NCBI GenBank assembly: GCA_963650805.1 | Contig: CAVJMG010000008.1 | Coordinates: 8,199-72,198, forward strand | Length of the DNA stretch: 64,000 nt | DNA from: an uncultured Bacteroidales bacterium | Lineage (GTDB): Bacteria; Bacillota_I; Bacilli_A; RFN20; CAG-826 | Direction: 5' to 3' | Shown: positions 1,839-41,902 of the stretch, piece by piece | Layout of the letters: every line of letters starts with the position of its first letter | How positions within the stretch are numbered: position 1 is the stretch's first letter | Made by a program: the position numbers and the translations under genes | Notes under the pieces: generated by a model | The model's database searches: none | The model's input: the letters and a program-made list of their open reading frames with translations, nothing else | What the model was told of the DNA's origin: nothing

Positions 1839-3164
1839 ATGTACGAATCTGACGTCGAAAACACAGTTGAAACTGCCGAAACCCCGGCGGAAGAACCCAA
1901 AGAAGAAGTCGTAGAGCAGAAGGAACAAACCGCTGCTGACGAAGGGTACGTTGTCTTGCGCCACATTGATAAGGTCTATGACAACAATGTTCAAGCTGTT
2001 TTTGATTTCAATCTCAATATCAAAAAACACGAATTCATCGTCTTCGTCGGGCCCTCTGGCTGCGGCAAATCTACGACGCTTCGTATGATCGCCGGTTTGG
2101 AAGACATTACTCGTGGCGAGCTTTATATCGACGGCGAGTACTCTAATGACCGCACTCCGAAAGACCGCGACATCGCCATGGTCTTCCAGTCTTATGCACT
2201 TTATCCGCATATGACCGTCTACAACAATATGGCCTTTGGCTTGAAGATTCGCCATCTTCCCCGCGCCGAGATCGATCGTCGCGTCCGCGAAGCCGCTAAA
2301 ACACTTCAGATTACCGAATATCTTGATCGCAAGCCTAAGGCCCTCTCCGGCGGCCAGCGTCAGCGTGTCGCCCTCGGCCGCGCCATCGTCAGGAACGCCA
2401 AAGTCTTCTTGATGGACGAACCTCTTTCCAACCTCGACGCCAAACTCCGCGTTCAGATGCGCTCGGAAATCATCAAGCTCCACGAAGCCCTTAACGCCAC
2501 AACCATCTATGTAACCCATGACCAGACCGAAGCTATGACCATGGCTTCCCGCATCGTCGTTATGAAGCTTGGCCGCGTGCAGCAAGTCGGGTCCCCGATT
2601 GAAATCTACAACAAGCCCGCGAACCTCTTCGTCGCCACTTTCATCGGCTCTCCGGCCATGAACGTTATGAAAGCCACCTACAATAACGGGGCTATTGAGC
2701 TTCTTGGCGACCACAAGATTCCCCTTTCTAAGGAAATCATCGCCATCCATGACGCCCACTACCAGGAAGAAGTGGAGAAAGGCGAAGCTGAACTCGCCGC
2801 TCTCCGCGAGAAGCAGGCCGGCCTTAAAGCCCCTGACGCCGCAATCGAAAAAGAAATCGCCGAACTTTCCGAAAGAGTTCAGAAGGATCGCGCCGCCCTT
2901 ACCGGCCCCCACGACATCATCTTCGGCATCCGCCCTGAAGACATCATCGAAGGAAAAGGCGAAGGCGAGGAATACAATATCCGAGTTGCCGTCGCCGAGT
3001 TGCTTGGCCATGAATATTATGTCCACACCGACTTCGGTGGCATTGACCTCATCGCCAAGATCCCTCTCACCCACGAAATCAAAATCGGCGATGAGATGGG
3101 CATCTCCTTCCGTGTTGAAAAGGCCCACATCTTCGACGCTTGGACCGAAGCTCGCATTTATTGA
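1839..3164 (+). CDS. ABC transporter ATP-binding protein, MalK/UgpC/MsmX-like sugar-importer ATPase with C-terminal regulatory domain
   Basis: Walker [11 protein letters not shown]-loop, signature [14 protein letters not shown], Walker [13 protein letters not shown]-loop, and a long C-terminal TOBE-like extension. ATG 1839 lies 10 nt after GGAGG (1824-1828); the track start at 1821 is TTG. Confidence 0.8.
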
Positions 3165-3179
3165 TTCGATGGTTCAATC

Positions 3180-3205
3180 GCCCTCTCCGAAAGGAGGGGG
3201 CTTTT
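3180..3205 (+). terminator. Rho-independent terminator after the MalK-like gene
   Basis: GC-rich hairpin cgccctctcc-gaaa-ggaggggg followed by a T-run. Confidence 0.5.
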
Positions 3206-3228
3206 GATTCGCCACAAAGCGGCCTTAA

Positions 3229-3450
3229 TTGCCTTATAATCAGGCCATGCCTGAATTCGGTAGCTACAAAAAGAAAAGCGACGAAAGCAAAAAGAAATCC
3301 GGCGAAGTCGTCAGCGCGTATTCCGAAGAAGGGAAGAAACGCCAGAAAAAAGCCGAATCTTTGAACCGGCTCTATTGGGGGATTGGTCTTGCTCTGGGCT
3401 TGCTGGGCCTTGCCCTTTTGATTTATTTCGTCGTGAAGAACCCTTTTTGA
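3229..3450 (+). CDS. Small membrane protein (73 aa): Lys-rich N-terminus, C-terminal TM helix
   Basis: ORF only; weak RBS. The hydrophobic C-terminus LYWGIGLALGLLGLALLIYFVV is consistent with a tail-anchored peptide. Confidence 0.25.
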   Translation: MPYNQAMPEFGSYKKKSDESKKKSGEVVSAYSEEGKKRQKKAESLNRLYWGIGLALGLLGLALLIYFVVKNPF

Positions 3451-3502
3451 TTCTCTTAAATCCCTTATCCTCCTTTATTCAATGAGTAGAGGAGGTTTTT
3501 TC

Positions 3503-3730
3503 ATGGAAGAGAAAACGAAATCGGCGAAGCTGGTAAAGCTTCTTTGCCTTGTCTTGGCATTGGCGTTGGTCCTCGTAGGCGCTATAAGGGCTTTTAGGGG
3601 CGATTCTTTATCCTTGGCCGAAGATGGCTTGATTGGGTTAGGAATTGGCGTTCTAGGGTACTCTATTTCGCTTATTTTGAGCCAAAAGGAAGAAACGGGG
3701 GAAGAAAAAATGGGCGATGAGGGGCTTTGA
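3503..3730 (+). CDS. Small membrane protein (~75 aa), two TM segments
   Basis: ATG 3503 is preceded by AGAGGAGG; hydrophobic LVKLLCLVLALALVLVGA and GLIGLGIGVLGYSISLIL. Convergent with the 3735..4997 gene. Confidence 0.35.
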   Translation: MEEKTKSAKLVKLLCLVLALALVLVGAIRAFRGDSLSLAEDGLIGLGIGVLGYSISLILSQKEETGEEKMGDEGL

Positions 3731-3734
3731 CCCC

Positions 3735-4997
3735 TTAATCGCCCTCATTCCCGCCGTCTTTTTTAAACGGCTTGGAAGATTTATATCCGTATTTGCGGTC
3801 TCCGTAACCCGACCTAGGCTTTTTGTAGCCTCCGCCGTGGAAGGAATTCCCTCCCTCTTTGGAATAGGTCTTCTTATACGGCTTGTCGGCATAGGAACGT
3901 TCTTTCTTGAAGTAGGGCTTGTCGCCATAATCCCTGGGCTTGCGCTCGTAGGATCCGCCTTCTTTGGAATAGGGTTTATCCCCGTCGCGGTGGAAGTCCT
4001 TTTTGTAAGGTTTATCGCCGAAGGAACGTTCTTTCTTGAAGTAAGGCCTGTCTCCGTAGGAGCGGTCCTTCTTGAAGTAGGACTTGTCGCCATAGCTCTT
4101 TGGTTTGCGCTCATAGGACCCGGAATCGTTTGAATAGGGTTTGTCTCCGTATTCCCTCGGTTTCCTTTGGTAGGATCCTTCTTTTGAATAAGGGCGATCC
4201 CCATCGCGGTGGAAGTCTTTTTTGTAGGGCCTATCCCCATAGGACCTTTCCTTTTTGAAGTAGGGCTTGTCACCGTAGGGGCGCTCTTTCTTGAAGTAGG
4301 GCTTGTCACCATAATTCCTGGGTTTGCGTTCGTAGGATCCGCCTTCCTGGGAATCGGCTTTCTCTCCGTCTTTTTGGAAGTCCCGCTGACCGTATTTTTT
4401 TCTTTGGTAGTCGGCGTTTCTTTCGTAGGAGCGTTCTTTCCTCTTCCAAGTGGGGTGGTGGTATCCCTCTTCGGAAGCCGGTTCCTCCCCGTTTTCCTTC
4501 GCGGCTTCTTTGGCTTTGATTTCCGCGGTTCTTTCCTCGACGATCGCGCGTTTCCTCTTTTGCATCTCAATGAACTCGGGGAGATCGTCTTCCGACATCA
4601 CCCAATAATCAATCGAGCTAAGAAGCGCGGCCGTGACGCCCATGCCTTTCTTCAGCTTCCCAGAGAAGGAGCCGTCGTGGATTTGGTAGACGCCGCAAGC
4701 GGGGCTTTTGTCCTTCAAGATGGCGATGTGGATGTTGAGGAGTTTGCATAGCCTAAGGGCTTTCTCGGCCCCGAGGTTGTATTGTTTGGTCACATTGGTG
4801 CCGTCTTTTGAATACACCCGCCCCGCTTTGATCTCGCTGGGGAGCCTTGGGGTGGGAAGCCCGCCTTCGACTTCGGGGCAGAAGGGGACCAAATCGAAGT
4901 AGCGGTTCAGTTCTTCGACCAAGGGGTTTTTGCAATCTTTGCCGTCGTAGCGGCAATGCTCGCCGAGCAGGCAAGCGGAAATGAGGATCTTGTCCAT
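3735..4997 (-). CDS. DUF523/TudS-like (putative [4Fe-4S] thiouracil-desulfurase-family) N-terminal domain fused to a ~270-aa basic Tyr/Lys/Arg/Gly/Asp-rich tandem-repeat C-terminal tail
   Basis: N-terminus MDKILISACLLGEHCRYDG...FCPEV...SPACG has the three conserved Cys spacing of DUF523. The C-terminal 270 aa are imperfect 12-aa repeats (S/P)YGD(K/R)PYFKKER arranged in about 2.5 higher-order ~66-aa units. Confidence 0.6.
   Translation of the reverse strand: MDKILISACLLGEHCRYDGKDCKNPLVEELNRYFDLVPFCPEVEGGLPTPRLPSEIKAGRVYSKDGTNVTKQYNLGAEKALRLCKLLNIHIAILKDKSPACGVYQIHDGSFSGKLKKGMGVTAALLSSIDYWVMSEDDLPEFIEMQKRKRAIVEERTAEIKAKEAAKENGEEPASEEGYHHPTWKRKERSYERNADYQRKKYGQRDFQKDGEKADSQEGGSYERKPRNYGDKPYFKKERPYGDKPYFKKERSYGDRPYKKDFHRDGDRPYSKEGSYQRKPREYGDKPYSNDSGSYERKPKSYGDKSYFKKDRSYGDRPYFKKERSFGDKPYKKDFHRDGDKPYSKEGGSYERKPRDYGDKPYFKKERSYADKPYKKTYSKEGGNSFHGGGYKKPRSGYGDRKYGYKSSKPFKKDGGNEGD
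3770..4460. repeat. In-frame tandem DNA repeats (36-nt unit, ~200-nt higher-order unit) encoding the repeat tail of the 3735..4997 CDS
   Basis: Recurring gggcttgtcgccata / ccgtaggagcg / ttcttgaagtag blocks; the plus-strand ORFs 3717..4133 and 4209..4751 are antisense artefacts of this repeat. Confidence 0.7.
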
Positions 4998-5037
4998 AAC
5001 TGCGATAGTCTAATCTTAATTCGGCCAAGAAGGAAGG

Positions 5038-5060
5038 AAAAAAGCCCCCGAAGGGGCTTG
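5038..5060 (-). terminator. Rho-independent terminator after the minus-strand lipoprotein operon (downstream of the 5078 stop)
   Basis: On the minus strand: agcccc-ttcg-ggggct followed by TTTTTT. Confidence 0.5.
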
Positions 5061-5077
5061 AATCGTCTTAACTTCGC

Positions 5078-6298
5078 TCAATCGCTTTCCAAGGGGTAAT
5101 CGTCGGGATTGAGGCGGGCGCCGGAATATTCTTCGTATTTGTCGACGGGGTCGAAGTCGAAGGTGTTCTCGGTGGTGATCATCATCTGCATCTCGCCATC
5201 GATGTAGTAGCCGATGACTTTCTCCACCTGGCAATGGACGATTTTGCCATTGCTGAAGGCCATTCCGCCGGAAACGACGTATTCATAGCCAACCGTGTAG
5301 CCAGAAGAAGTCTGGTTATTGACCATGTAGGCGTAGGCGAAGGTCTGGCCGAGCTGAGAGGCATCGAGCTGGCTCGGATCGATCTCGGAGATGTAGTAGT
5401 AGTCGCCAACGTAGCTCGTGGAGAGGTTGGCGAGGCGCTGCATCTGCTTCCCGGCTTTCAAATAGCCGTAAAGCTGGTTGATGTAGCCCATGAAGTATGA
5501 GGAGAAATCGATGTTGAGCGCGGTTTCGGGCTTATCTTGGGTAAGGGCGGTCACCGCTTTGTAATCGATGTTCGAAGACTCGTAATTGGGGTTTCTGGTG
5601 TTGTAGGTGACGACTTGATAGAAATTGTTGTTTTCATCAAGGGTATCTTGTTCCGTCGACCACAGATTCTCCGCGTTGAGCTCCTCGGCGGTGTGCCCGG
5701 CCTTCTTCTGATCCTCGGTGAGGTCGTCGTCGGTCGCGTAATAATCCGGGGAGTAGTTTTTGAGGATGGTGATGTCGGTGTAGCGATAAGCCTCGAGATG
5801 GGTTTTCCCGGTGAAGACCCTATCGGAGGCGTTGGCGTACCAAAGCTGGGTCTCGATGTCGGCCTGGACGTGGCCGACGAGGGGGCAATACCTCTGCACC
5901 TTGTCTTGGTATTCCTTGACGATTTGGGTGTCGCTGAGGTCAGCCATCAAAGTCCAGTGGGCGTAAAGGGAAGAAGGGGCAGCGCTATTGAAGTAGAAGG
6001 GGTTGCCTCCCTCTCTTTCGGTGTACCAGCCCTGGAAGACGCGGTTAGCGGAGACGGGCTCTATGGGCTCCTCCACGAAACCGGCCGCGTTGGGGCTAAG
6101 CTCTTTGTAGACGGTGAGATCAGTCGAAGAGAGGTTCAAATAAAGCTTCACCTTATTGGCGATGACCTCCGAAGAGGATGAGGAGGATGAGGGCGATGAA
6201 GAGGAAGCCTCGCTGCTATCTTGCCCTCCCCCCTGGGTGCAGGAGGAAAGGAGCAAAGCGCCGGAAAGCAGCAATATCGGAGTGAGCTTCTTGGCCAT
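5078..6298 (-). CDS. Lipoprotein, function unknown (signal peptide with LLSSC lipobox, then poly-Ser linker)
   Basis: MAKKLTPILLLSGALLLSSCTQGG then S-rich run. The start overlaps the stop of the upstream gene (TAATG at 6296-6300), indicating an operon. Confidence 0.6.
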   Translation of the reverse strand: MAKKLTPILLLSGALLLSSCTQGGGQDSSEASSSSPSSSSSSSEVIANKVKLYLNLSSTDLTVYKELSPNAAGFVEEPIEPVSANRVFQGWYTEREGGNPFYFNSAAPSSLYAHWTLMADLSDTQIVKEYQDKVQRYCPLVGHVQADIETQLWYANASDRVFTGKTHLEAYRYTDITILKNYSPDYYATDDDLTEDQKKAGHTAEELNAENLWSTEQDTLDENNNFYQVVTYNTRNPNYESSNIDYKAVTALTQDKPETALNIDFSSYFMGYINQLYGYLKAGKQMQRLANLSTSYVGDYYYISEIDPSQLDASQLGQTFAYAYMVNNQTSSGYTVGYEYVVSGGMAFSNGKIVHCQVEKVIGYYIDGEMQMMITTENTFDFDPVDKYEEYSGARLNPDDYPLESD

Positions 6299-9200
6299 TA
6301 TAAGGACTCCTTGGTGCCGTATTTGACGTTGACGGTGGTCGAGCCCATCAAATCGCTATCGAAGTACTTCCGGATGGCGTCTTTGGAATAGGCGAAGCTT
6401 ACGGTTTGAGAAGCGGTCCAGCCATTGAAGAGCCTCCTGCCGAGATCGGTGGCCGATTCGGGGATGGAGATGGAAGCGAACTTGCAGTTGCTGAAGGCGT
6501 ATTCGCCGATCTTCTTGAGCCCGTCGTTGAGGGTCAAAGAGGCGAGTTTGGCGTTCTTGCTGGAGAAATAGGCGAAGGCGTAGGGGTCAATGGTCCTGAC
6601 GGAGCTAGGCAAGGTGATGGAAGTGATTTCGCTGCCGGTGGCGAAGCCGTAAACGCGGGTCTTGCTCGCGTCCATGATCATCTGGTCGACGACGACGTAG
6701 GCGCTGGAATTGCTCTTGAATTCGGGAACGAGGCTGCGCTGCTCGGAGAAGGCACCTTCCCCTAGAGACGTGAGGGTGCTAGGCAAGGCGATGGTCGAGG
6801 AGATGCTGCAGTTGCGGAAAGCCCTGTCCCCAATGCTGACCAACCCTTCGTTGAGGGTGATGCTCCCTAGCGTGAAGATGGAGGAGAATGCTTCCTCGCC
6901 GAGGGTCTTCAAAGAGCTTGGCAAGGTGATGGCGTCGTACTTCTTGCTGCCATCAACGGTGGTGGAAGCGATTTCGACGAAGGTGAAGGCGTTATCGCCG
7001 ATGCTCTCAAGTCCTTCGGAGAAGGTGGAAGAAGAGAGGGCGAGGTTAGCGAAATAGAAGGCTTCCTTATCGATGGTCTTGACCGAGGAAGGTAGATTTA
7101 GCACCGTTCCGGAACCGTATTTGAAGGACTGGAGGAAGGCCCTTTCGTCGATCTTCTCTAGCCCTTCGGGGAGAGAAAGCCCCGTGGCGTTCTTCAAATA
7201 ATAGCAAGCGTAGGGGAGGATTTCCTTCGTGCCGGAATGGATGTTGATCGTCCCGTTTTTGGCCGGGGAGACGTAATAGAGCTTTTCATAGCCCGTGGAA
7301 TACAAAGCCATGTCGTCGATGATGAAGCTGGCTTTGGCTTTCTCGGAGAGAGTCATGTTGGTGATGGAGGCGGTACCGAAGGGGGCGCTGCCGAAGTCGG
7401 TGAGGCCGGCTCCAAAGGTGACGGAGTTAAGCGCGTTGGTGCCGTTGGTGGCGAAGGCGCTTGAGCCCAATGACTTCAAAGAATCAGGCAAAACAACGGA
7501 GGTCAAAGCCGCGCTGCCGGTGGTGAGGCCCTCATCGTCGCTGCTGGGGAAGTAATAGAAAGCCATCGAACCGATCGTCTCGATGCCCTCGCCCAATGTG
7601 AGCGAGGTGAGGGACGTGCCCATGAAGGCTTCCCTTTCGATCGTCTTGACGTTTCCGGGGATAACCAATTTGGAAATGCTCTTGCAATCGTAGAAAGCGG
7701 CCTCGCCGATGGTGGTGAGCCCTTTGCCGAAGCTGACTCCGGTGATCGCGCAGTTCATGAAGGCCTCATCGCCAAGAGCCGTCACCGAATCGGGGATTGC
7801 GACGGTTCCTTTGAACATGGAGTTGTAATGGAAGGCGCGCGGCTTGATTTCGAGTAGGGTTTCGGGCAAAACGATGGAAGTGACGAACTTCACGTCGGAG
7901 ATGCTGTGGCTCTCTAAGGACGTGATTCCAGAAGCGAAAGAGAGGGTATCCTCGCTGGTCTTAACGGACCAGTTGCCGGGGACGTAGTAGACTTTGGTCC
8001 CATCGGCGGAATAAAGGATGTCGTTAACGACTTTGAAATGGCTGTTTTCTCCGCCGAATTTGATGGTTTCGATCCCGTAATCTTGGAAGAAGACGGCGTC
8101 GCCGAAGCTCTCCAAAGAGGCGGGCAAGACGACCGTTTCAAGCGCGTTGAGGCGGGAGAAGCAATAGTCGCCGAGGACCTTGATGGAGTTGGGCAGGACC
8201 ATATCGCCCTTCAAATAGACGCCGGAGAAGGCCGAATCCCCGATCTCCTCAAGCCCTTCCGACCAAGTGATCTTCATGGTGACGGTGGAATCGAACATCA
8301 AGAAGGCCTTTTCCCCGATTTTCTTTAAAGAGGAGGGGAAGCTGAGGCTAGAAAGGGCGAGCTGCTCATAGAAGGCGCAGGCGCCGATTTCTACGAGTCC
8401 TTCGGGGAAGGTCACGGTGCTAAGCGTCGCGTCTGCGGCCACGAAGGAAGAGGTGTAGAAAGCGTAGGGCCCGACCTTGGTGACGCCGCTAGGAATGGCA
8501 TAGGTGGAGAGGGTGCGCGATTTGGTGGCGGCGAAATAAACGAGCTCGGTCCCGTCTTTGGTGAAGATGATGTTGTCTTCGGCTTTGTAGGCGGGGTTAG
8601 CGCTGTCGACGGTCACGGTGCTGATCTTGTAGGCGCCAAGGAAGGCCTTGGGGTTGATTTTCGTGACGCTTGCCGGAATGCTCACGGATTGGAGGTAGAT
8701 GCGGCTTTGGAAGGCCATTTCGCCGATTTCGGTGACGGCCTTGCCGTCGATTGAAGAGGGAATCGCGGCAACGACGGTGTCGATGTCGAGGAGCCCGTTG
8801 ATGCAGATGGTCCCGTCATCCTTGATGGTGAACTTATAGTTGAAGGCCTGGACGGTCCATTTGGCGTAGATTCTGTTGCCGGCGATGTCGCTTCCGACGT
8901 AGCCGGAGAAGGAATATTCGGTCCCGTCGGAATCCTTGTAATACCAGCCGGAGAAAACCTCGCCTTCTTTTTCGGGGATGGGGAGAGTGATCCTGTCGCC
9001 GACGAAAGTCTCGACGGTGTCGCTAGTTCCCGCGGGGAGAGTGCCTCCGTTGGGGTCGAGGGTGAGGGTGACTTTCTGGTCTTCGTTGACCTTATATTTG
9101 GCGACGAGGGTGACGTCGTCCCAGATTTGGGTGTGCCAAGAGAAGGCGACGCTATCGCCAGCGGCGTACCAGCCAAGGAAGGTGCTATTGGCTTTTGTGG

Positions 9201-9474
9201 GGGTTTCCGTTGGCTTCTTCGCCCAACGCCCCTCCTGGACCTTCTGAGAAGCCATGGTCGTGGAACCATCGCTTAAAGTGCCTCCGTTGAGGTCGAAGGT
9301 CACCGTGTGGTAGACGACGGCCTCGGAGGAAGAGGAAGATTCGCTGGTGGAAGTTTGGCTTTCGGAGCTCGCCTGCTCAGAAGAAGACGAACTCGCGGAG
9401 TTCCCGCCTTGGTTGCAGGAAGCCAAGGCCATGGCCAAGGAGGCGGAGAGGATCAATAGGGATTTCTTTTTCAT
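6298..9474 (-). CDS. Large surface lipoprotein with N-terminal Listeria-Bacteroides (Flg_new) repeat and many BspA-type leucine-rich repeats
   Basis: Lipobox LASCNQGG plus poly-Ser. VYHTVTFDLNGGTL...FLGWY is the Flg_new pattern. More than 15 repeats of ~23 aa of the form (I/V)P.SV..IG..AF..C..L..V. Confidence 0.7.
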   Translation of the reverse strand: MKKKSLLILSASLAMALASCNQGGNSASSSSSEQASSESQTSTSESSSSSEAVVYHTVTFDLNGGTLSDGSTTMASQKVQEGRWAKKPTETPTKANSTFLGWYAAGDSVAFSWHTQIWDDVTLVAKYKVNEDQKVTLTLDPNGGTLPAGTSDTVETFVGDRITLPIPEKEGEVFSGWYYKDSDGTEYSFSGYVGSDIAGNRIYAKWTVQAFNYKFTIKDDGTICINGLLDIDTVVAAIPSSIDGKAVTEIGEMAFQSRIYLQSVSIPASVTKINPKAFLGAYKISTVTVDSANPAYKAEDNIIFTKDGTELVYFAATKSRTLSTYAIPSGVTKVGPYAFYTSSFVAADATLSTVTFPEGLVEIGACAFYEQLALSSLSFPSSLKKIGEKAFLMFDSTVTMKITWSEGLEEIGDSAFSGVYLKGDMVLPNSIKVLGDYCFSRLNALETVVLPASLESFGDAVFFQDYGIETIKFGGENSHFKVVNDILYSADGTKVYYVPGNWSVKTSEDTLSFASGITSLESHSISDVKFVTSIVLPETLLEIKPRAFHYNSMFKGTVAIPDSVTALGDEAFMNCAITGVSFGKGLTTIGEAAFYDCKSISKLVIPGNVKTIEREAFMGTSLTSLTLGEGIETIGSMAFYYFPSSDDEGLTTGSAALTSVVLPDSLKSLGSSAFATNGTNALNSVTFGAGLTDFGSAPFGTASITNMTLSEKAKASFIIDDMALYSTGYEKLYYVSPAKNGTINIHSGTKEILPYACYYLKNATGLSLPEGLEKIDERAFLQSFKYGSGTVLNLPSSVKTIDKEAFYFANLALSSSTFSEGLESIGDNAFTFVEIASTTVDGSKKYDAITLPSSLKTLGEEAFSSIFTLGSITLNEGLVSIGDRAFRNCSISSTIALPSTLTSLGEGAFSEQRSLVPEFKSNSSAYVVVDQMIMDASKTRVYGFATGSEITSITLPSSVRTIDPYAFAYFSSKNAKLASLTLNDGLKKIGEYAFSNCKFASISIPESATDLGRRLFNGWTASQTVSFAYSKDAIRKYFDSDLMGSTTVNVKYGTKESL

Positions 9475-9519: not shown

Positions 9520-10851
9520 TTAGGCAATTTTGAGCTCTGTGTTTTTGCTCCCCATGCCTTGGGGGACGCTGCTGTCGACCACCTGGGTGAAGATGAGCTT
9601 TTCGGGCAGTCCGTCGCTATTTCTTTCGGTAGAAACGTTGAGCTTCCATTCGACGTCGCCGCGGTCTTCGACTCTTCCCGGAGCCGAGAAGGTGAGGGTG
9701 TTCGTCGAGGCGTCGAATTTGTATTTCTTCGTCGTGGTGCTTATAAGCGTGCTCACAGCGGACTTCTCTAGGTGCTGATAGCCGGTGAAGGGATTGAAAT
9801 CTTTGCAATCCCAATCTCCCCAATCGTCGGTTTCGTAATAATAGGTGACTCCCCAGGTCAGCATCCCGTCCCCAGAGAAGGAAATCGTGATGGTGGAAGT
9901 GTAAGTGGTGTAGTCCGTCGTCGGCGTGTAACTGTAGGTTCCAACGTAGGTGACGGCCTTGGTGAAGGGGTCATCCTCGCTCACGACCGGCTTAGCTTCG
10001 GTTGGGACGGAGATGGTGACGTTGCCTTCTGGCATGTAGAAGTAGTAGCTTCCCTCGCTGGCGCCATCCTTGATTCCAACACTCTTCGTCCCAGAATCTT
10101 CGGACGAGACGGACAAATAAGTTCCGCTGATGCTTCCAGAGAGCATGTAGCCCTCTTCGATGGCAATGGAGAAGCTGATCGTCTTCCCGGATTTGTAATA
10201 GGCCTGCTCCTCTTCGATTTTGTAGGTGAAGTGGTTCCCGGAGAAAGAGACGGAATACAATCTATCGCTTTCGACGTTCAAGGTGATGTCGAAACCCGGC
10301 ATCAAGAAGGAATAGGCGCCTTCTTGATTTGGTTCGAGGCTAACGCGCGGGTAATTCGTCCCCTTCTCGACGTAATAGACGCTTTTCAAGGAGTAGTATG
10401 CCCCTAGGGAAGAAAGGGTGAAACTAACTTCCTCCCCGGCTTTATAAGAGGTCGCTCCTTTAGAGAAAACCACGCTGTAGCCGCTAGTTTTCGTCGTTAT
10501 CGAATGGGCCACCTCCTCCAAGCTGGAGGACTCCTCGCTAGAAGATTCTTCGCTGGAGGAAGATTCGGAGGATTGATGGGAAATCGATTCGCTAGAAGAG
10601 CTCGATTCCGTGGATGATGATTCTTGACTGCTTGAAGAGGAATAGCTGCTCGTTTCACTGGATGAGCTCGTTTCCTGTTGGCTGCTAGAAGAGCTTTCGC
10701 TCTGAATAACTGAGGATGAAGATGTTTCGCTTGCTTTGCTTTCGCTAGATGAGGCCGAGGAAGAGGGCGCGCCCCCTGAGCCTGAGCATCCAACTAAAAC
10801 CAAGGAAGACAAAACTAGGATCAGCCCGGCTTTGCTTCGCTGCATTGGCAA
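9520..10851 (-). CDS. Lipoprotein with ~90-aa Ser-rich linker, function unknown
   Basis: MPMQRSKAGLILVLSSLVLVGCSGSGG, then a long S/E-rich low-complexity segment, then a globular C-terminal part. Lies 45 bp upstream of the LRR gene on the same strand. Confidence 0.55.
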   Translation of the reverse strand: MPMQRSKAGLILVLSSLVLVGCSGSGGAPSSSASSSESKASETSSSSVIQSESSSSSQQETSSSSETSSYSSSSSQESSSTESSSSSESISHQSSESSSSEESSSEESSSLEEVAHSITTKTSGYSVVFSKGATSYKAGEEVSFTLSSLGAYYSLKSVYYVEKGTNYPRVSLEPNQEGAYSFLMPGFDITLNVESDRLYSVSFSGNHFTYKIEEEQAYYKSGKTISFSIAIEEGYMLSGSISGTYLSVSSEDSGTKSVGIKDGASEGSYYFYMPEGNVTISVPTEAKPVVSEDDPFTKAVTYVGTYSYTPTTDYTTYTSTITISFSGDGMLTWGVTYYYETDDWGDWDCKDFNPFTGYQHLEKSAVSTLISTTTKKYKFDASTNTLTFSAPGRVEDRGDVEWKLNVSTERNSDGLPEKLIFTQVVDSSVPQGMGSKNTELKIA

Positions 10852-10994: not shown

Positions 10995-13145
10995 TTATTC
11001 GGCGCTGGTGTCGGTGGATTCGGTGGTTTCGGTGGTGAGCAAGGCCTTCGCGGCGGCGGAGACGTTGTCGGTGCCGACGTCGGAGATGGTGTATCCCCAG
11101 GTGTAGTAGATGGAAGAGCTCACCTGGAAGACGAAGGAAGCGGTGAGCTTGGTGCCGTCTTCGGAGAGGATGAAGGAATTGGTCACGTATTCGGCCCATT
11201 CCTGGAGCTGGATCCAAATGGAGGTGTAGAAACCGGCGGTGCCAAGAAGCATCGAGGCCATGGACATAGTGCCGACGTTATAGCCATCGGAGAGGCCGAA
11301 CTCGGAATCGTCGCCGTAGGTGTTGAAGTAGTAGGAAGTGGAGTTGTCCGCGTTGACGGTCTTTTCATAGAAGGAGGTCACGTCGAGGAGGGTCACGCCT
11401 TTGGAGATGACGTCGCTATCGAAGGCCTGGCCGAGCATGGTGTTCTTCGTCCAAAGTTCGGTTCTTGAGGTTTCTTCGGTTTCGGTGTGCTCGGCGTCGT
11501 ATTTGTAGGTGTCTTCGGCCGCGTCGTAGGTGCCGGAAACGGTCTTATAGCTGCCGTTTTCGATGAATTGGACGTTGGCGGTGCCGGATTCGCCGACCTC
11601 CTCATGGTATTGATAATCGTCGTCCATGGAGATGACGGTCTGCTCATACATCGTCGCGTTGGCGGCGATCTTCAAGGAATAGTTCCCGAAGACGCCCTTC
11701 TCCGTGTCGCTGAAGTGCATGTTCTCAGGGCAATCGATGTTTTTTCCATCGCCATCGGTCCACTGGCCATAGCCTTCGAGGGTCATGGTCTTTTGCTCGA
11801 TCATGTTCTTGAAGAAGGTGTTGATCGGGCTGATGTCGATTTGCTCGGGGATGACGGGATCGGCGGCCCAAGCCTCCAAAGCGGGGATTTTCACTCCGTT
11901 GACGTTGCTGACCATGACGGTGGTGCTATAGGTGTGTCCATCAGAGTAGCTGAAGCTGCCGATAAGTCCGCCATCGTTAGCCGGGACGACGTTGAGGACG
12001 CCGGAATCGGGGAAGTAGAGGACGACGGCGTAAGTGGCATCCAGGTTCCTTTGCAAGAAGCTCCAAACGGGGGCGCCGATGCCGGAATAGAAGTCGCTGA
12101 TGACGGTGCTGGAAGTGGAGGTCTCGGCGAGGGTGTAGACGTAATAGGGGTTGCCGTCGCTATCGGCTCCGATGACGGGGACGCCTTTGTCGGTCAATTC
12201 CGCGAAAGCGCTGGAAGAAGTGGCGAAAGCGGTGATGCCTTCGCTGTCTTTCCCCCCGGCGTAGCCCGGGTTGAAAGTGGCGGAATCCTCGAAGGTGACT
12301 TCGTCGTTGTCATCGATGGAGGCATTGATGGAGAAGCCATAGTTCTTGGAATCGTTCTTGTTGTAGACCGAACCGGTGAAGACGTATTTGCCGGTGGTGG
12401 CGTCTTTGCCGGCGAGGCTCGCGTAGTAGTTGTCGGCGAGCATGTAGTAGCCGGCCAAAGAGCTGTAGGATTCGAGGTTAGCGCCGATCGAGTCAATGAA
12501 GGCGTTGAATTTGAGCTTGTTCTCGGAAACGACTTTGCCGGTGATGGCCCTCTTGGTGGTGCCGGCGACGATGGTCACGCTGAAATCGCCAAGGGCAAGG
12601 CCGATGACTTTGTGTCCGTCGATCTGGACGGTGTCGGAATCGGTGGTCAAGCTCCAAGTGTCGACTTTGGTGACGGTGACGTATTGCTCGAGGTCAAGGG
12701 CGTTTTTGGAACCTAAAGCGATTTCGCCGGGCAAATTGTCGTAGTCGACGCTGATCTTGCCGGCGACCTGCCTCTCCTTGACGGTGAGGACGACCTCGCG
12801 GGTCGCGGCGCCGTTAGCGATGTTGGCAGTGATTTTGCAAGAGCCGACGCCGATGCCGGCGACAAGACCGGTCTCGGAAACGGTGGCGATTTCATTGTTG
12901 GACGAGCTCCAAGAAACGGGGAGCTGAGCCGGATCGGTGGTGACGGTCAATTGCAAAGTGGAGCCTTTTTCGACCTCAGGGTTTTCCTGGTCGATTTTGG
13001 CACTGTTGACAACGATCGAAGGGGTGCTGCTGGAGCTGCTGGATTCCCCGCCTTGCTGATTGCAAGAAGCCAAGGTGAGCGAAGTCGCGCCCACAGAAGC
13101 GACCAATGCGGCAGCGGTGAGCAGCTTAACGCAAATTTTCTTCAT
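10995..13145 (-). CDS. Surface lipoprotein with Ig-like (Big_2-type) domains
   Basis: MKKICVKLLTAAALVASVGATSLTLASCNQQGG lipobox plus poly-Ser. The N-terminal region GSCKITANIANGAATREVVLTV resembles the Big_2 fold signature. Confidence 0.6.
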   Translation of the reverse strand: MKKICVKLLTAAALVASVGATSLTLASCNQQGGESSSSSSTPSIVVNSAKIDQENPEVEKGSTLQLTVTTDPAQLPVSWSSSNNEIATVSETGLVAGIGVGSCKITANIANGAATREVVLTVKERQVAGKISVDYDNLPGEIALGSKNALDLEQYVTVTKVDTWSLTTDSDTVQIDGHKVIGLALGDFSVTIVAGTTKRAITGKVVSENKLKFNAFIDSIGANLESYSSLAGYYMLADNYYASLAGKDATTGKYVFTGSVYNKNDSKNYGFSINASIDDNDEVTFEDSATFNPGYAGGKDSEGITAFATSSSAFAELTDKGVPVIGADSDGNPYYVYTLAETSTSSTVISDFYSGIGAPVWSFLQRNLDATYAVVLYFPDSGVLNVVPANDGGLIGSFSYSDGHTYSTTVMVSNVNGVKIPALEAWAADPVIPEQIDISPINTFFKNMIEQKTMTLEGYGQWTDGDGKNIDCPENMHFSDTEKGVFGNYSLKIAANATMYEQTVISMDDDYQYHEEVGESGTANVQFIENGSYKTVSGTYDAAEDTYKYDAEHTETEETSRTELWTKNTMLGQAFDSDVISKGVTLLDVTSFYEKTVNADNSTSYYFNTYGDDSEFGLSDGYNVGTMSMASMLLGTAGFYTSIWIQLQEWAEYVTNSFILSEDGTKLTASFVFQVSSSIYYTWGYTISDVGTDNVSAAAKALLTTETTESTDTSAE

Positions 13146-13451: not shown

Positions 13452-15590
13452 TCACGCGTCGATATTGACGAAGTGGATGGTGATCGAATCGTCGGTCTGC
13501 CCGGTGATTTCAAAGTTCCAGTTGAGCTTGCTGCCGTCGTTGAAGGTGAGGCCGTTCATGTAAAGGCTGCTCATCTTGAAGTTGCTGTAGGAGCTTCCGC
13601 CGTACTTCTTGTTGCCATCGTCGGCTTTCGGATCGCCGCCCCAGGTGAGGCTGTAATCATCGTCACCGAAGACGTTGACCATGTTGCCCATGGTGCTGTA
13701 GTAGGTGCTTCCGCCGAAGCTATCGACTCCGGAAGGGGTGATGGCCTTGACGTGGCGAAGGGCGGTCGGGGAGACGACGCTGCCGTCTTTGATTTCTTGG
13801 GACAAACGCCCGGAAGAGGTGCCGTCGTTGCTGGCGTAAAGAGTAGCGGCCTCTTCGTAGGTTCCTTTGGTCGTATCTTTATAAGAAGACGCGCGCGGAG
13901 TGTCGGTATAGGCCAAAGTGCCCTCGCCCTTGGAGCCATCCTCATCAAGCTTCCCTTGGACGGATGCGGTTCTAGCGTCGATGTGGAAGATCTGCAAGCC
14001 GGAGTGCTCATAGGTGCCGCCGTGGCCGTAGGTGGCTTGCCCGGAAGAGCTCGTCGCGTTGGACCATTCCGGATACCCGGTGGAATCCATCTTGTTGACG
14101 CCGGTGGGGGTGTAGTACTCAAGGACTAAATATTCGTCGTAGGGGGTTTCGTTCCAAGCGTCGGTGGTGGTGTTGCGGAGAAGGATGAATTTGCCGGTGT
14201 CCGTATAGGAGGGCAAGGTGATTTCGAAGTTGTCCAAAGAGCCGTCGACAACCATCGGCCCGACCCAGTTGTAGGCCATCTTCGTGTAGGCGTTATGGTC
14301 GCCGACGTTTTGGTCCATCATGTCGACGCATCCGGCGGCGCCTTCGAGGTGGTCATAGGAATAGTAGTCGGGGGCGCCCATCATGTGCCCGGTTTCGTGG
14401 ATGATGGTGTGGGCGTCGACGGCGTTGCCGTTGACCCTGTTGCCGATGGGGTTGCCGGACTCGTCCTGAACATCAGCGTAGTAGCTATTGGTCAAGAAGT
14501 CGAAGCGGGACCAGAAAATGCGCCTGGCGCCGGGCTTTTTCACGTTCTTGGTGCCGCTGACGTTGGTGGTGAAGTTCCACCACAGGTTGCCGCTTTTCTC
14601 GCTGGTTCCGAAGCCGCTTGTGGGGATGCTCTGGGAAGTGTAGTAGACGACTTCGATTCCGTCGATGTAGCCATCGCCGTTAGCGTCGTATTTGGTGGGG
14701 TCGAGGTCTCCGGATTCGGTCAACTGCTTCACGGCGTCGAGGGTGATTTTCTGAGCTATTGAGGTATCGTCTCCGTTGAGCTTGGAATCGTCGGCGTCGT
14801 AAGTGACGATCGGGGTGACGTCGCCGGTGATGTTCAAGGCACCGAAGCTCGCTTTGTCGTAATAGGAGTGGAGAGATTCCCAAGGGGTGTCTTTCCCATC
14901 CTCGTTCTTGGCGAAGAAGGCTTCCTCAAGGACGTCATGGACCTTTTCTTCGCTGATGCCGGCGTTGCTGAATTTGGCATTGTTGAATTGGACGGGGATG
15001 ACCAAAATATTGACCGTTCCGCTGCTAGGCATGCCCGACCCGCCGAGAGTCTCGATGCCCGAATAGTTTTGGTAGGTGTATTGGGAGAGGCTTTCCTTAG
15101 AGACTGTGTGGTAGCCTTTGCCTTCGCTGGCTTTCTTAACGTCCTTCTCTTGGACGGTGAAGTCGATCGTCTTGGTCCACTTGGCCTTCATGTAGCGCAC
15201 TTTGGCGGTGTAGGAGCCTTTTGGGAGGACGTCTCCGGCTTCATAGACCTTGGTGGAATCGTTTTTGTCGGTGATCGTGTAGGTGGTCTGGAATTTGTAT
15301 TCGGTGACGTCTTTGTCGGTGCCGGCTTCTTCGTCAATGAAATGGACGCTGGGCTTGGCGGCGTCGAAGAAGCAGGTGCCCTCCGGGATGACCGTGTTCC
15401 CCAAGGAGACTTCCACCCTTTGCTTCGAGGGCGTAGAGCTTATGGATTCTTCGCTGGATTCCGAGCTGGATTCGGAACTTTCGGTGGATTCGATGGCGCT
15501 GGAACTCGAGGATGAGGAGTTTCCGCCGGTTTGTCCGCAAGAGGCGAGGGCCAATCCGAGAACGGCCCAGGCGAGGTATTTCTTTTTCAT
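13452..15590 (-). CDS. Lipoprotein zinc metallopeptidase, M6 (immune inhibitor A)-like HExxHxxGxPDxY motif
   Basis: MKKKYLAWAVLGLALASCGQTGG lipobox plus poly-Ser. Motif HTIIHETGHMMGAPDYYSYD. Confidence 0.55.
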   Translation of the reverse strand: MKKKYLAWAVLGLALASCGQTGGNSSSSSSSAIESTESSESSSESSEESISSTPSKQRVEVSLGNTVIPEGTCFFDAAKPSVHFIDEEAGTDKDVTEYKFQTTYTITDKNDSTKVYEAGDVLPKGSYTAKVRYMKAKWTKTIDFTVQEKDVKKASEGKGYHTVSKESLSQYTYQNYSGIETLGGSGMPSSGTVNILVIPVQFNNAKFSNAGISEEKVHDVLEEAFFAKNEDGKDTPWESLHSYYDKASFGALNITGDVTPIVTYDADDSKLNGDDTSIAQKITLDAVKQLTESGDLDPTKYDANGDGYIDGIEVVYYTSQSIPTSGFGTSEKSGNLWWNFTTNVSGTKNVKKPGARRIFWSRFDFLTNSYYADVQDESGNPIGNRVNGNAVDAHTIIHETGHMMGAPDYYSYDHLEGAAGCVDMMDQNVGDHNAYTKMAYNWVGPMVVDGSLDNFEITLPSYTDTGKFILLRNTTTDAWNETPYDEYLVLEYYTPTGVNKMDSTGYPEWSNATSSSGQATYGHGGTYEHSGLQIFHIDARTASVQGKLDEDGSKGEGTLAYTDTPRASSYKDTTKGTYEEAATLYASNDGTSSGRLSQEIKDGSVVSPTALRHVKAITPSGVDSFGGSTYYSTMGNMVNVFGDDDYSLTWGGDPKADDGNKKYGGSSYSNFKMSSLYMNGLTFNDGSKLNWNFEITGQTDDSITIHFVNIDA

Positions 15591-16110: not shown

Positions 16111-16232
16111 AACTCGCGTTAGTTTCGCTTATTTTTATAAAATAACGCTTGCCTTTTTTTCGCCGTGTGGTTAGGTATAGCAGCGCTTGCAGTTTTTTAA
16201 GCGTGATTACGTCAATGCAAAGGAGAAAAGCT

Positions 16233-30681: not shown

Positions 30682-31314
30682 ATGGGAAAAGAGCCGTTCA
30701 TCAAATACAAGGGGAAGAAATACTCCGTCTCCATCGTTAATGATGAGCAGGCGAGAAACTACCTCGTCACCCTGGATAAAGAGAAAGACGCCTTAACCGT
30801 CTCTTGCCCTAGAAGAGGGAATGAAGCAGGGGCCTTAAAAGCGGCGAAAAGCTGCTTGCCCTCGCTATATTGGCTGAGGATTAAACAAATATCCCCATAT
30901 AAAGATGGATGCATCTACCTTTTCGGCGAGAAAGTCTACGTCGGGCAGATGAACGAAGAAGACCTCGATATATTCATGAAGGAAAAAGCCCTTCCCTATT
31001 ACAAAGAAAGAGTGGCCCATTTCGAAAAGGAAATGGGCGTAAGCGAGCCTTACCGAGTCAGGGTCAGGACGATGAAAACCCGCTATGGGGTCAATTCCAG
31101 GCGGACTCACTGCATAACCCTGCAGACTCAACTCATAAGCTTCCCTCCGGAGATCATCGATTCGGTCGTCGTCCATGAGCTCGCCCATCACTTCGTCTTC
31201 AACCACAGCAAGGCATTCTACGACGTCGTTTACCGTTATTGCCCCGATTACAAAATCCTCATCGAGCAACTAAGGACCAAACAATATGAAAGAAAGACTG
31301 ACCTCGGTAAATAA
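30682..31314 (+). CDS. YgjP/DUF45-family (SprT/M48-like) metal-dependent hydrolase
   Basis: C-terminal motif VVHELAHHFVFNHSKAFYDVV is the DUF45 HExxH...NHS...F signature. ATG 30682 (the track start at 30661 is TTG). Confidence 0.6.
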   Translation: MGKEPFIKYKGKKYSVSIVNDEQARNYLVTLDKEKDALTVSCPRRGNEAGALKAAKSCLPSLYWLRIKQISPYKDGCIYLFGEKVYVGQMNEEDLDIFMKEKALPYYKERVAHFEKEMGVSEPYRVRVRTMKTRYGVNSRRTHCITLQTQLISFPPEIIDSVVVHELAHHFVFNHSKAFYDVVYRYCPDYKILIEQLRTKQYERKTDLGK

Positions 31315-32002
31315 CCCCCATATCAAAGAGCTCTCTTGCCTTAAGAAGAATAATCCCGAGCTTTTCCTCGTCGAGGGCTTCCACCTCGTGGAGATGGCTA
31401 TCCGGCATGGCGACCTTGTCGAAGTCCTTTCTTCGTCCCCTTATGAAGCGAATTGCCGCTGCGTCGAGGTGACTCCCCAAATCATTGCTAAACTGGCTCA
31501 AAGCAAAACCCCCGAAGGAATCATCGGAGTATGCAAGAAGAGAGAGGAGACTACGCTTTCTAACGATAGGGTATTGTTTTTAGACCGCGTCCAAGACCCA
31601 GGTAACATCGGAACCCTTTTGCGGAGCGCCCTTTGCTTCGGCTATAAGGAGATCATCTCCATTTCCGGAAGCGCCTCTTTCTACAACCCCAAGGCCATCG
31701 CCTCTAGCCAAGGGGCGCTATTCGCACTTTCCCTCCATGAGAATTGGAGCCAAGAGGAAGCGGTGGAGACCCTGAAGAAAGAAGGCTATTATCTTTTGGG
31801 CAGCTCCTTAGCTAACGGAGCCGACTTCCATTCGCTTCCTCCTTTGCCAAAGAAAAGCTGCCTCATCCTCGGCAACGAAGGCAAAGGCATGAGCGACTAC
31901 CTCTTATCCCAAACCGACGCCAACGCCTATATCCCCATCGAGGGCATCGATTCCCTTAACGTCGGCGTCGCCGGGGGGATATTGATGGAGCGTTTCCGCT
32001 GA
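31286..32002 (+). CDS. TrmH (SpoU)-family RNA 2'-O-methyltransferase
   Basis: SPOUT-family motifs LDRVQDPGNIGTLLRSA and LILGNEGKGMS...IPIEGIDSLNVGVAGGILM. Overlaps the upstream gene by 29 nt. Confidence 0.7.
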   Translation: MKERLTSVNNPHIKELSCLKKNNPELFLVEGFHLVEMAIRHGDLVEVLSSSPYEANCRCVEVTPQIIAKLAQSKTPEGIIGVCKKREETTLSNDRVLFLDRVQDPGNIGTLLRSALCFGYKEIISISGSASFYNPKAIASSQGALFALSLHENWSQEEAVETLKKEGYYLLGSSLANGADFHSLPPLPKKSCLILGNEGKGMSDYLLSQTDANAYIPIEGIDSLNVGVAGGILMERFR

Positions 32003-32059
32003 CTTTCTTTTAGAAAAGAAAAGCGGTGCATTTTTTTCTCGTTGGTCCATAATCAAGGC

Positions 32060-33262: not shown

Positions 33263-33268
33263 TTCTTT

Positions 33269-33293
33269 GGCCCCATCATTCACGGGGCTTTTT
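33269..33293 (+). terminator. Rho-independent terminator
   Basis: gcccc-atcattcac-ggggc followed by TTTTT. Confidence 0.5.
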
Positions 33294-33344
33294 AAAAGTT
33301 CGGATTGGCCTTAATAATTCTTTTCTTTGAATAAAAACAAGCTT

Positions 33345-34301: not shown

Positions 34302-34319
34302 ATGAGGGTTTTTCTTGAA

Positions 34320-34572
34320 AGGCGTAGGGAAGGGGATAGAATGGAACCGTCCAATGAAGCGGAGCAGTAGCGGAGCTACTTCCGGGCACAGGGAGGGATG
34401 AACAGTGAGACCATCCCCGATGGAAGCCGCGAATTCGCCGCCGAGGACGGGAGGGTGACCTCCCCGGCCCCGCCGTTATCGGGAGTGAGAGCGATTTGGG
34501 AAAGTCCAAATCGAAGTGGGATGGCACCGCGGAGTTATCCGTTCCCGCCGGGCCGTCTTTTATTTTTAAGGA
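34320..34572 (+). promoter_or_regulatory. T-box riboswitch leader upstream of pheST (Phe specifier UUC)
   Basis: Conserved T-box sequence aagtGGGATGGCACCGCGGag at about 34519-34539. The specifier-loop candidate gctacTTCcggg contains UUC. Terminator/T-tract cgtcttttattttt lies just before the RBS AAGGAG. Confidence 0.6.
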
Positions 34573-34580
34573 GTATGAGC

Positions 34581-35621: not shown

Positions 35622-35630
35622 GAGCTAAAC

Positions 35631-39240: not shown

Positions 39241-39242
39241 GG

Positions 39243-40169: not shown

Positions 40170-40209
40170 CTCCCAAGAATAAAAAGGAAAAAGGAAGGAG
40201 GGAGCCAAG

Positions 40210-41889: not shown

Positions 41890-41902
41890 GAGGAGCTAAT
41901 CG

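Follow-up and report, generated by a model that had tools for sequence, protein, structure and literature searches.

A TudS-family protein with a disordered repeat tail from uncultured Bacilli, and related repeats on RNA-modifying enzymes

The DNA analyzed here (hereafter the window) is a stretch of 64,000 nucleotides from contig CAVJMG010000008.1 of the assembly GCA_963650805.1 (positions 8,199 to 72,198, forward strand), assigned to an uncultured bacterium of the GTDB lineage Bacilli_A, RFN20, CAG-826. On its minus strand it carries a gene for a protein of 420 amino acids (aa) in which a catalytic domain of the TudS family (formerly DUF523) is followed by a charged linker and a long disordered tail of Lys/Tyr/Gly/Asp/Pro-rich repeats. 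The protein belongs to a large, undescribed subfamily of tailed TudS proteins, found in uncultured Bacilli from gut and rumen, and near-identical repeat motifs were found in other bacteria as extensions of rRNA methyltransferases, pseudouridine synthases and an RRM protein. Judged from these sequence similarities, the tail is a recurrent appendage of RNA-modifying enzymes, and it may tether the predicted desulfidase to RNA.

Domain architecture and constraint on the tail

The N-terminal part of the protein (aa 4-138) matched Pfam PF04463 (2-thiouracil desulfurase, formerly DUF523) with 146.6 bits (E = 6e-43, cut-off 34.7) over the full length of the profile (positions 1-141 of 141), which bears out the DUF523 assignment made in the initial annotation. 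The only match among PDB sequences was TudS (6z92/6z96, phmmer E = 5e-30), and the catalytic domain was 42-44% identical to TudS_A. A model built with AlphaFold2 (AF2) on 23 homologues had a predicted local distance difference test (pLDDT) score of mostly 85-96 for aa 1-135, and its predicted fold was matched by Foldseek to 6z93_A with E = 7e-17, a template modelling (TM) score of 0.88 normalised to the target and a root-mean-square deviation of 2.0 Å. In the alignment with 6z92_A, the predicted [4Fe-4S] ligands Cys9, Cys40 and Cys101 align with TudS_A Cys10, Cys43 and Cys104 and are invariant in 23 tailed homologues; Glu42, Ser98 and Arg16 align with the catalytic Glu45 and Ser101 and the phosphate-binding Arg17 of TudS_A (residue roles according to PMC10611767 and PMC11417400), and Glu42 and Ser98 are invariant across the tailed clade. 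The second catalytic Ser is absent, as Ala100 (in the motif SPACG) occupies the position of TudS_A Ser103 and RudS_KT Ser113, the latter being one of those at which mutation left RudS with essentially no activity (PMC11417400). Of the 137 tailed clusters 39 have SPACG, as have 4 of the 50 stand-alone ones, and most others have SPSCG, which points to a recurrent natural variant, and the domain with Ala100 is still strongly constrained, the ratio of non-synonymous to synonymous divergence (dN/dS; Nei-Gojobori, three orthologues) being 0.04-0.06. The N-terminus is a bona fide TudS/DUF523 domain in which one proposed catalytic Ser is replaced, and the protein is predicted to be a [4Fe-4S] thiouridine/thiouracil desulfidase of the TudS family.

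The catalytic domain is followed by a charged linker (aa 136-170, EFIEMQKRKRAIVEERTAEIKAKEAAKENGEE…; 8 K+R and 10 D+E per 35 aa), predicted by AF2/DSSP as a single long alpha-helix over aa 136-168 with the pLDDT dropping from ~90 to 67, and tailed homologues conserve this linker, which the untailed forms of 143-147 aa lack. The remaining 250 residues (aa 171-420) had a pLDDT of ~40 and no secondary structure, and are predicted to be disordered. They contain no I, L, V, M or C, 44 aromatic residues (18%), 69 K+R and 45 D+E (net charge +24, isoelectric point 9.63, fraction of charged residues 0.46), and the tail is a net-positive polyampholyte. For the tail (aa 150-420 in the Pfam search) no match was obtained in Pfam, NCBIfam or PDB sequences even at E ≤ 10. 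These figures agree with the initial description of an aromatic, low-complexity tail devoid of a hydrophobic segment, but only partly with its being called extremely basic: the net charge is positive, but the number of acidic residues makes "extremely" an overstatement. Likewise, the region that had been delimited as the repeat tail (3735-4550) corresponds exactly to aa 150-420 and the stop codon, but aa 136-168 form a charged helix and not repeat.

The repetitiveness of the tail lies far above that of shuffled sequences. Identity autocorrelation peaked at lags of 73 (0.34) and 12 residues (0.32), with a shuffle maximum of 0.22, and the unit SYGDKPYFKKER was matched at 8 or more of its 12 positions by ten segments of the tail, compared with 0.8 on average, and never more than 4, when the sequence was shuffled 500 times. 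Tandem Repeats Finder detected a higher-order repeat and, within each of its two units, a shorter array (Table 1), the 12-aa units being NYGDKPYFKKER, PYGDKPYFKKER and SYGDRPYKKDFH in the first and SYGDKSYFKKDR, SYGDRPYFKKER and SFGDKPYKKDFH in the second. In total, ~10-11 units of 12 aa are recognisable, or ~15 when half-units such as SYERKPR and RDGDRPYSKEGG are counted, so that the original estimates of ~22 repeats and a ~66-aa higher-order unit have to be corrected, the latter to 73 aa.

Orthologues at 95%, 82% and 75% protein identity (loci L001, L002 and L003, from other assemblies) have kept the architecture and the C-terminal end, and the same gene was called in each of the orthologous loci L001, L002, L003, L005 and L086. 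The dN of the tail was ~4 times that of the domain and its dN/dS 0.06-0.12 (0.04-0.12 over all parts of the gene), which implies that the minus-strand frame is translated and that purifying selection acts on the tail; the long plus-strand open reading frames (ORFs) at 3717-4133 and 4209-4751 are shadows. Between the window and the 95% identical L001, synonymous divergence reached 0.29 in the tail (3738-4487) and only 0.066 in the catalytic domain; the difference could stem from gene conversion between repeat units, recombination with another allele or misalignment of repeats.

Tail length varies between close relatives. The 90%-identity cluster to which the window protein (P0259) belongs has members of 421, 420, 366, 365 and 347 aa, which differ by whole blocks of 55 or 74 aa and retain the reading frame and the same C-terminus. 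A 165-nt unit is present in 2.4 copies (94% match) in the strain with the 421-aa form (L086) and in one copy fewer in that with the 366-aa form (L087), and sister clusters of 415 and 389 aa show insertions and deletions in repeat-sized steps. As all units (36, 165 and 219 nt) are multiples of three, the tail is resized and the gene is not switched off; a contingency (phase-variable) repeat locus was considered and rejected, the variants of 347-421 aa staying in frame. The repeat copies in the window are only 78-79% identical, which argues against a hot slippage tract. The length variation proposed initially is borne out, the differences being whole higher-order units.

Tails among TudS relatives and on RNA-modifying enzymes

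A search with the full-length protein returned 266 proteins, of which the best 120 were nearly all 230-505 aa long and consisted of a TudS domain and a charged, hydrophobic-poor tail. In order to avoid a bias from the tail, the N-domain (144 aa) was searched alone against 1.84 billion cluster representatives (6491 matches). The top ~50 representatives were again nearly all long (200-470 aa, domain at residues 1-144), and stand-alone proteins (143-157 aa) were frequent only below ~145 bits. The proteins of both searches were then pooled, their N-domains re-scored locally and their tails classed by composition: all 15 proteins with an N-domain score of at least 250 bits had a basic low-complexity tail, as did 39 of the 45 that scored 160-250 bits, and five of the remaining six ("other") had narrowly missed the hydrophobicity threshold, their tails being basic too. 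Within GTDB, the 80 species representatives with such loci were all uncultured Bacilli from gut, rumen or digester (labelled Candidatus Enteromonas, "Mollicutes", "Erysipelotrichaceae" RUG or Bacillales UBA). Their loci held 79 complete genes, 44 of at least 200 aa and ~30 of 143-157 aa, and in a neighbour-joining tree of these N-domains and that of the window gene, the untailed genes formed one clade and the window gene fell in a long-tailed clade (372-427 aa). The fusion had been presented as an oddity, and these counts reverse that view, as tails are the rule in the closest TudS relatives. The accompanying statement that the family is normally stand-alone fits the ~59% of TudS-family proteins with a single domain, but not the ~40% that are fusions with DUF1722 (PMC11417400). 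Tailed proteins would be hidden within the single-domain class, and the subfamily has been left unannotated because domain databases are blind to low-complexity tails. None of the DUF523 literature appears to treat such tails, as far as a full-text search and the titles, abstracts and term searches of TudS and RudS papers extend.

Among relatives the tail ranges from ~20 to more than 300 aa and its sequence is poorly alignable between clades. The tail is nonetheless a trait of the whole lineage that has long been retained. Across 137 tailed clusters the sequence drifts (KPYGEKRSYGDK…, HSSYGH…, KKPF…) and the composition is kept, even among lineages whose N-domains are only 50-60% identical, a pattern typical of functional disordered regions. 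Some relatives (P0060, P0068, P0096, P0103 and L082) have His-rich tails (10-15% His) with HSSYGH/HKPYGEH repeats and almost no net charge; basic character is therefore not universal, and Tyr and Gly are kept. These tails may behave as aromatic "stickers" or bind metal. Several other readings were tried and set aside: weak Mucin-like and Nup214-FG matches of P0096 were compositional; a conserved acidic C-terminal tip (SSB-like) amounted to a mild enrichment, with two or more D/E among the last six residues in 24 of 44 tailed proteins (0.27 vs. 0.155); and cell-wall-binding, mussel-adhesive-like or dehydrin-like roles rested on composition, with no recognisable signal peptide and no profile match. 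No other protein in the window has such a tail, and in 85 related loci such tails occurred only on TudS, with no split "tail-only" gene beside an untailed TudS, so the tail is not a proteome-wide habit.

When the tail alone was used as a query, the database search returned a single protein (P0121), composed entirely of low-complexity sequence with DRSYGDKPYNKDRS repeats that share SYGDKPY with the window tail; as this search missed orthologues with local phmmer E-values of 1e-112 to 1e-4, low-complexity words apparently being unindexed, its negatives are uninformative. With P0121 as the query 74 proteins were found, and the 67 non-TudS proteins with a Pfam domain were all RNA modifiers or binders: SpoU methylases with SpoU_sub_bind (RlmB-type, 34), pseudouridine synthases with S4 (27), TP_methylases (RsmI, 3), and one each of a NusB-domain protein (RsmB N-domain), an RRM protein and an S4-only fragment. 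The others were five tailed TudS proteins (P0001, P0002, P0003, P0007 and P0021) and two proteins with no domain. NCBIfam models assigned P0278 to RsmI (196.6, cut-off 167.9), P0271 to RlmB (216, cut-off 160), and P0272 and P0274 to the RsuA/RluB/RluF-type synthases (pseudouridine synthase subfamily model above its cut-off); the RRM protein P0327 scored just below the cut-off of an RRM "Rbp" regulator (99.3 vs. 100), and the N-domain of P0267, on a truncated contig, best fitted RsmB models at scores under their cut-offs.

The similarity extends to the repeat units themselves. The window tail and the C-terminal tail of the RsmI protein P0278 (locus L089, 3001-4545, on the 4.23-Mb chromosome OW818676.1) are 46-49% identical over ~200 aa (BLASTP, composition-adjusted, E = 8e-29), share the unit (E/D)RKPRx(Y/F)GDKPY and end similarly (KEGGNSFHGGGYKKPR vs. 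KSKGGNSGGFKRKPR). Local phmmer with the window tail, scaled to the database size, gave E-values of 5.6e-37 for P0278, 1e-13 for P0274 and 5e-9 for P0270, and the tail of the TudS protein P0007 aligned with the extension at the N-terminus of the RsmB-like P0267 (56% identity over 206 aa, E = 3e-53). E-values of low-complexity sequences need caution; the identity of the motifs is visible directly in the sequences. The compositions are also close, with K/R 0.27, D/E 0.19, Y/F 0.16, G 0.12 and P 0.07 in the window tail and 0.25-0.31, 0.16-0.19, 0.08-0.15, 0.04-0.15 and 0.09-0.14, respectively, in the extensions of the RNA enzymes. Among the 63 synthase, RlmB-type and RsmB-like matches that were checked, 62 carry the extension at the N-terminus, as does the S4-only fragment; in RsmI, the RRM protein and TudS it stands at the C-terminus. 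We use a definition of our own, and not a curated family, for this disordered KPYG(D/E)K-type repeat module: free of hydrophobic residues, with K/R ~27%, D/E ~18%, Y/F 10-16%, G ~12% and P 7-10%, and carrying the motif (K/R)P(Y/F)G(D/E)(K/R) or (Y/F)GDKP(Y/F). The window tail falls within this definition, and a literature search found no description of the shared extensions.

Explanations for the tail

In the mechanism that we propose, the protein would have three working parts: the catalytic domain (aa 1-135), a rigid charged helix (aa 136-168) and the 250-residue disordered tail, which would serve as a sequence-loose, composition-dependent module for tethering to RNA. Lys and Arg would contact phosphates, Tyr and Phe would stack on bases and Asp and Glu would maintain solubility, and the local concentration of the desulfidase on RNA would be increased. 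Sulfur would then be removed from 4-thiouridine, possibly also 2-thiouridine, in intact tRNA or in RNA that is being degraded. The disordered module would thereby do the job that the folded, tRNA-binding DUF1722 does in RudS, and in-frame gain or loss of 36-, 165- and 219-nt units would tune tail length between strains. The idea of RNA tethering draws indirect support from the presence of the same repeat on RsmI, RsmB, RlmB, RluB/RluF-type synthases and an RRM protein. We consider the chances that the tail tethers the desulfidase to RNA to be even, and a true activity on intact RNA to be possible but rather doubtful.

Several observations weigh against RNA tethering and desulfidation of RNA. 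The link to RNA is an association via low-complexity similarity, for which E-values are unreliable and convergence is possible and not separable from exchange, and two RNA-modifying enzymes encoded in the same window, the SpoU methylase (31286-32002) and a RluA-family pseudouridine synthase (54560-55465), have no such tail. Over its 250 aa the tail has 45 acidic residues and a net charge of only +24, and Ala100 replaces the Ser equivalent to RudS_KT Ser113, as it does in 39 of the 137 tailed clusters. The substrate of RluB, RlmB, RsmI and RsmB is the rRNA of assembling ribosomes, TudS is not known to act on rRNA, and RudS is linked to ultraviolet A (UVA) stress, which is irrelevant in the gut. 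Finally, disordered C-terminal segments of 40 residues in E. coli RluB and RluF, unrelated to the repeats described here, make no contribution to substrate stem-loop binding (PMC3919597).

Many of the same data would also fit an ordinary TudS of nucleotide salvage, acting on free 4-thio-uridine monophosphate (4-thio-UMP), 4-thiouridine or thiouracil, with a tail that has a role unrelated to the substrate, such as placement in an RNA-decay or ribosome-rich compartment or condensate, solubility (an entropic bristle), binding of the nucleoid or DNA, or, in the case of the His-rich relatives, of metal. The catalytic domain is that of a typical TudS, and stand-alone TudS prefers 4-thio-UMP (PMC10611767). 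Untailed orthologues of 143-147 aa occupy the same neighbourhood in sister lineages, so that the core job is seemingly tail-free; the organism appears genome-reduced and dependent on uptake (Mollicutes-like division cluster, large Opp and other ATP-binding cassette (ABC) transporters); the tails of some relatives are 10-15% His, and the tail is a polyampholyte and not a pure polycation. Salvage leaves unexplained, however, why at least five families with the repeat all have RNA polymers as their substrates or binding partners, with none unrelated to RNA among them, and an enzyme of free nucleotides would gain little from a 250-aa tail kept at a dN/dS of ~0.1. We regard this explanation as the main alternative, tentative and of limited probability.

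A largely neutral, self-expanding repeat, generated by slippage or unequal recombination in a fast-evolving lineage with a reduced genome and tolerated rather than used, is improbable. It would account for the wide range of tail lengths and the poor alignability between clades, for the variable copy number inside one 90% cluster, for a tail dN ~4 times that of the domain and for the existence of one tail-free clade. It does not account for the low dN/dS of the tail, for the exclusion of I, L, V, M and C from 250 residues and the composition held across lineages with N-domains 50-60% identical, for the limitation of the tail to this one ORF in the window and to the TudS ORFs in the 85 related loci, or for the same motif having been selected on other RNA enzymes.

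Far less probable still is an artefact, be it an expanded or collapsed assembly, a fusion to a downstream gene through a frameshift or the shadow of an opposite-strand gene. In its favour, repeats are difficult to assemble from short reads, the short alleles of the cluster (366, 365 and 347 aa) could in principle be collapsed assemblies and the plus-strand ORFs are long. Against it, the same architecture recurs across many independent assemblies and species, the window copies are too diverged to collapse and, in the minus-strand frame, synonymous changes far exceed non-synonymous ones. A Logan contig from SRR13434624, identical to 2330-6993 of the window (4664 nt), also speaks against it but carries little weight, as it may derive from the same reads. 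For the window copy the artefact is effectively refuted, and the tail can be treated as genuine sequence.

If RNA tethering is the function of the tail, two linked claims arise, whose joint truth seems to us plausible at best and less than probable. Firstly, tailed TudS would be a second class of erasers of RNA thio-modifications, widespread in uncultured gut and rumen Bacilli, with a disordered tail for the capture of tRNA or other RNA. Secondly, the KPYG(D/E)K/RKPRxYGDKPY repeat would be a hitherto unrecognised modular RNA-targeting element that six or more families (TudS, RsmI, RsmB, RlmB, RluB/RluF-type synthases and an RRM protein) have acquired in repeated events of exchange or convergence, and it could direct these enzymes to a common RNA-rich site, such as assembling ribosomes or an RNA condensate. 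The function of TudS was assigned only recently, and fusion with DUF1722 is the one known route to a tRNA "eraser". If the tail delivers the desulfidase to RNA, thiouridine erasure would be far more widespread than is now known, including anaerobic gut bacteria in which protection from UVA is no reason for it, and a simple repeat would provide a sequence marker for RNA-directed enzymes in metagenomes.

Gene neighbourhood and known systems

The coordinates of the gene, its parts and other annotated features of the window are given in Table 1. The hairpin of the upstream lipoprotein gene leaves ~45 nt for a promoter and leader of the desulfidase gene; no Shine-Dalgarno-like sequence was visible before its ATG, and a sigma-70 promoter scan gave no match near it. 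Downstream, the gene faces, in convergent orientation, two small ORFs for membrane proteins and a MalK-like ABC ATPase. The small ORFs (3229-3450 and 3482-3730, plus strand; 73 and 82 aa) encode one hydrophobic helix each, and the second ends 4 nt from the TudS stop. Each of the five orthologous loci (L001, L002, L003, L005 and L086) has at least one small gene of 65-82 aa at this place, and four have both, so that the two ORFs probably encode real small membrane proteins.

Table 1 Features of the window discussed in the text (positions in the window)
Feature	Coordinates	Strand	Basis or remark
Whole gene, 420-aa TudS-family protein with disordered repeat tail	3735..4997	-	Stop TAA 3735-3737; ORF list
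TudS/DUF523 catalytic domain, aa 1-135	4593..4997	-	Pfam PF04463, 6z92_A alignment, AF2, Foldseek
Predicted Fe-S ligand codon, Cys9	4971-4973	-	
Predicted Fe-S ligand codon, Cys40	4878-4880	-	
Predicted Fe-S ligand codon, Cys101	4695-4697	-	
Ala100 codon (SPACG)	4698-4700	-	
Charged linker, aa 136-170	4488..4592	-	AF2/DSSP helix aa 136-168
Disordered Lys/Tyr/Gly/Asp/Pro-rich repeat tail, aa 171-420	3738..4487	-	AF2, composition
Higher-order tandem repeat, 219 nt (73 aa), 1.9 copies, 78% match	3958..4369	-	Tandem Repeats Finder
36-nt (12-aa) array, 2.5 copies, 79% match, first higher-order unit	4224..4313	-	Tandem Repeats Finder
36-nt (12-aa) array, 2.1 copies, 79% match, second higher-order unit	4005..4079	-	Tandem Repeats Finder
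Terminator-like hairpin of upstream lipoprotein gene	5042..5059	-	Terminator scan
BspA-type leucine-rich repeat protein	6298-9474		
Big_2 protein	10995-13145		
SBP_bac_5 protein	16215-18950		Unusually large, 911 aa
YgjP-like	30682-31314		
SpoU methylase	31286-32002		
PheS/PheT	34398-38018		

A YgjP-like metallopeptidase gene is the immediate divergent neighbour of TudS in 61 of 74 related loci; it is followed in 53 loci by a SpoU/TrmH-family methylase gene and in 32 by pheS. In the window, the YgjP-like/SpoU/pheS genes lie at 30682-35621, ~25.7 kb from TudS; given the opposite strands and this distance, the arrangement was considered synteny and not an operon, and the neighbourhood was set aside as a functional clue. 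The intervening block (5078-30167) contains predicted lipoproteins, Opp permeases and ATPases, an ATPase_2/DUF234 protein and a number of large ORFs that matched no Pfam family, and looks like a lineage-specific insertion of a surface/transport island. Five ORFs of 318-935 aa (32060-33262 and 33345-34301 on the plus strand; 27360-30167, 13452-15590 and 9520-10845 on the minus strand) matched no Pfam family at E ≤ 1e-5 (1e-3 for 27360-30167), and the two on the plus strand are wedged between the SpoU methylase and pheS. Further along, mraZ, mraW/rsmH, ftsA and ftsZ stand back to back (38869-43066), with no genes for a penicillin-binding protein, no mur genes and no genes of ftsL/ftsW size between mraW and ftsA; this reduced, Mollicutes-like division cluster is consistent with a wall-less or strongly reduced lineage of Bacilli. 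At 43162-47704 (plus strand), the gene of a SWIM zinc-finger protein (477 aa) comes immediately before that of an SNF2-family helicase (1035 aa) with an SNF2_assoc domain, a pair that looks conserved.

Disordered extensions of RNA enzymes are known from the DEAD-box helicases RhlE1 and RhlE2, in which basic disordered regions are reported to drive RNA binding and, at the C-terminus, to define the functional specificity of each helicase (PMC11260450). The likeness lies in a charged, disordered extension on an RNA enzyme; the sequences are unrelated and the comparison is an analogy only. We know of no Tyr-Gly-Asp-Lys-Pro repeat in the disordered regions of RhlE. Much closer are the extensions of the RNA enzymes found here, namely of RsmI (P0278, P0268 and P0270), the RsmB-like P0267, RlmB (P0271 and P0321), the RluB/RluF-type synthases (P0269, P0272 and P0274) and the RRM protein P0327, which have nearly the same motifs of 12 and 6 aa ((E/D)RKPRx(Y/F)GDKPY and KPYGEK(K/R)S(Y/F)GD), the same composition, 46-56% identity over ~200 aa and lengths of 150-265 aa. 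They differ in their partners, which are rRNA methyltransferases and pseudouridine synthases, and in being usually N-terminal, whereas the tail of TudS is C-terminal.

Compared with stand-alone TudS, the thiouracil/4-thio-UMP desulfidase of known structure (PDB 6Z92-6Z96 and 6ZW9), the window protein has the full-length TudS domain in aa 1-135, with Ala100 in place of Ser103. TudS_A is a single-domain monomer of 166 aa, to which the window protein adds the 33-residue charged helix and the 250-residue disordered tail. Stand-alone TudS favours 4-thio-UMP and does not desulfurate tRNA in vivo (PMC10611767), whereas RudS, a fusion of TudS with the tRNA-binding DUF1722, erases 4-thiouridine at position 8 (s4U8) of tRNA instead of serving nucleotide salvage (PMC11417400). 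In E. coli, overexpressed RudS lowered the 4-thiouridine of tRNA 5-26-fold, and stand-alone TudS left it unchanged (PMC11417400). The window protein resembles RudS in having a TudS core with a C-terminal appendage, which in RudS binds tRNA and redirects the enzyme to s4U8. It differs in having no DUF1722, as follows from the lack of any Pfam match to aa 150-420, and no folded domain after aa 168. ThiI was absent among the 40 ORFs of the 64-kb window that were scanned with Pfam. The hosts differ as well, RudS being found in UVA-exposed Proteobacteria and tailed TudS in anaerobic Bacilli of gut and rumen. With an activity on tRNA, inferred from the type of tail that it shares with RNA enzymes, the window protein, itself not a RudS, would be a functional parallel to RudS, with a disordered repeat in the place of a folded tRNA-binding domain.

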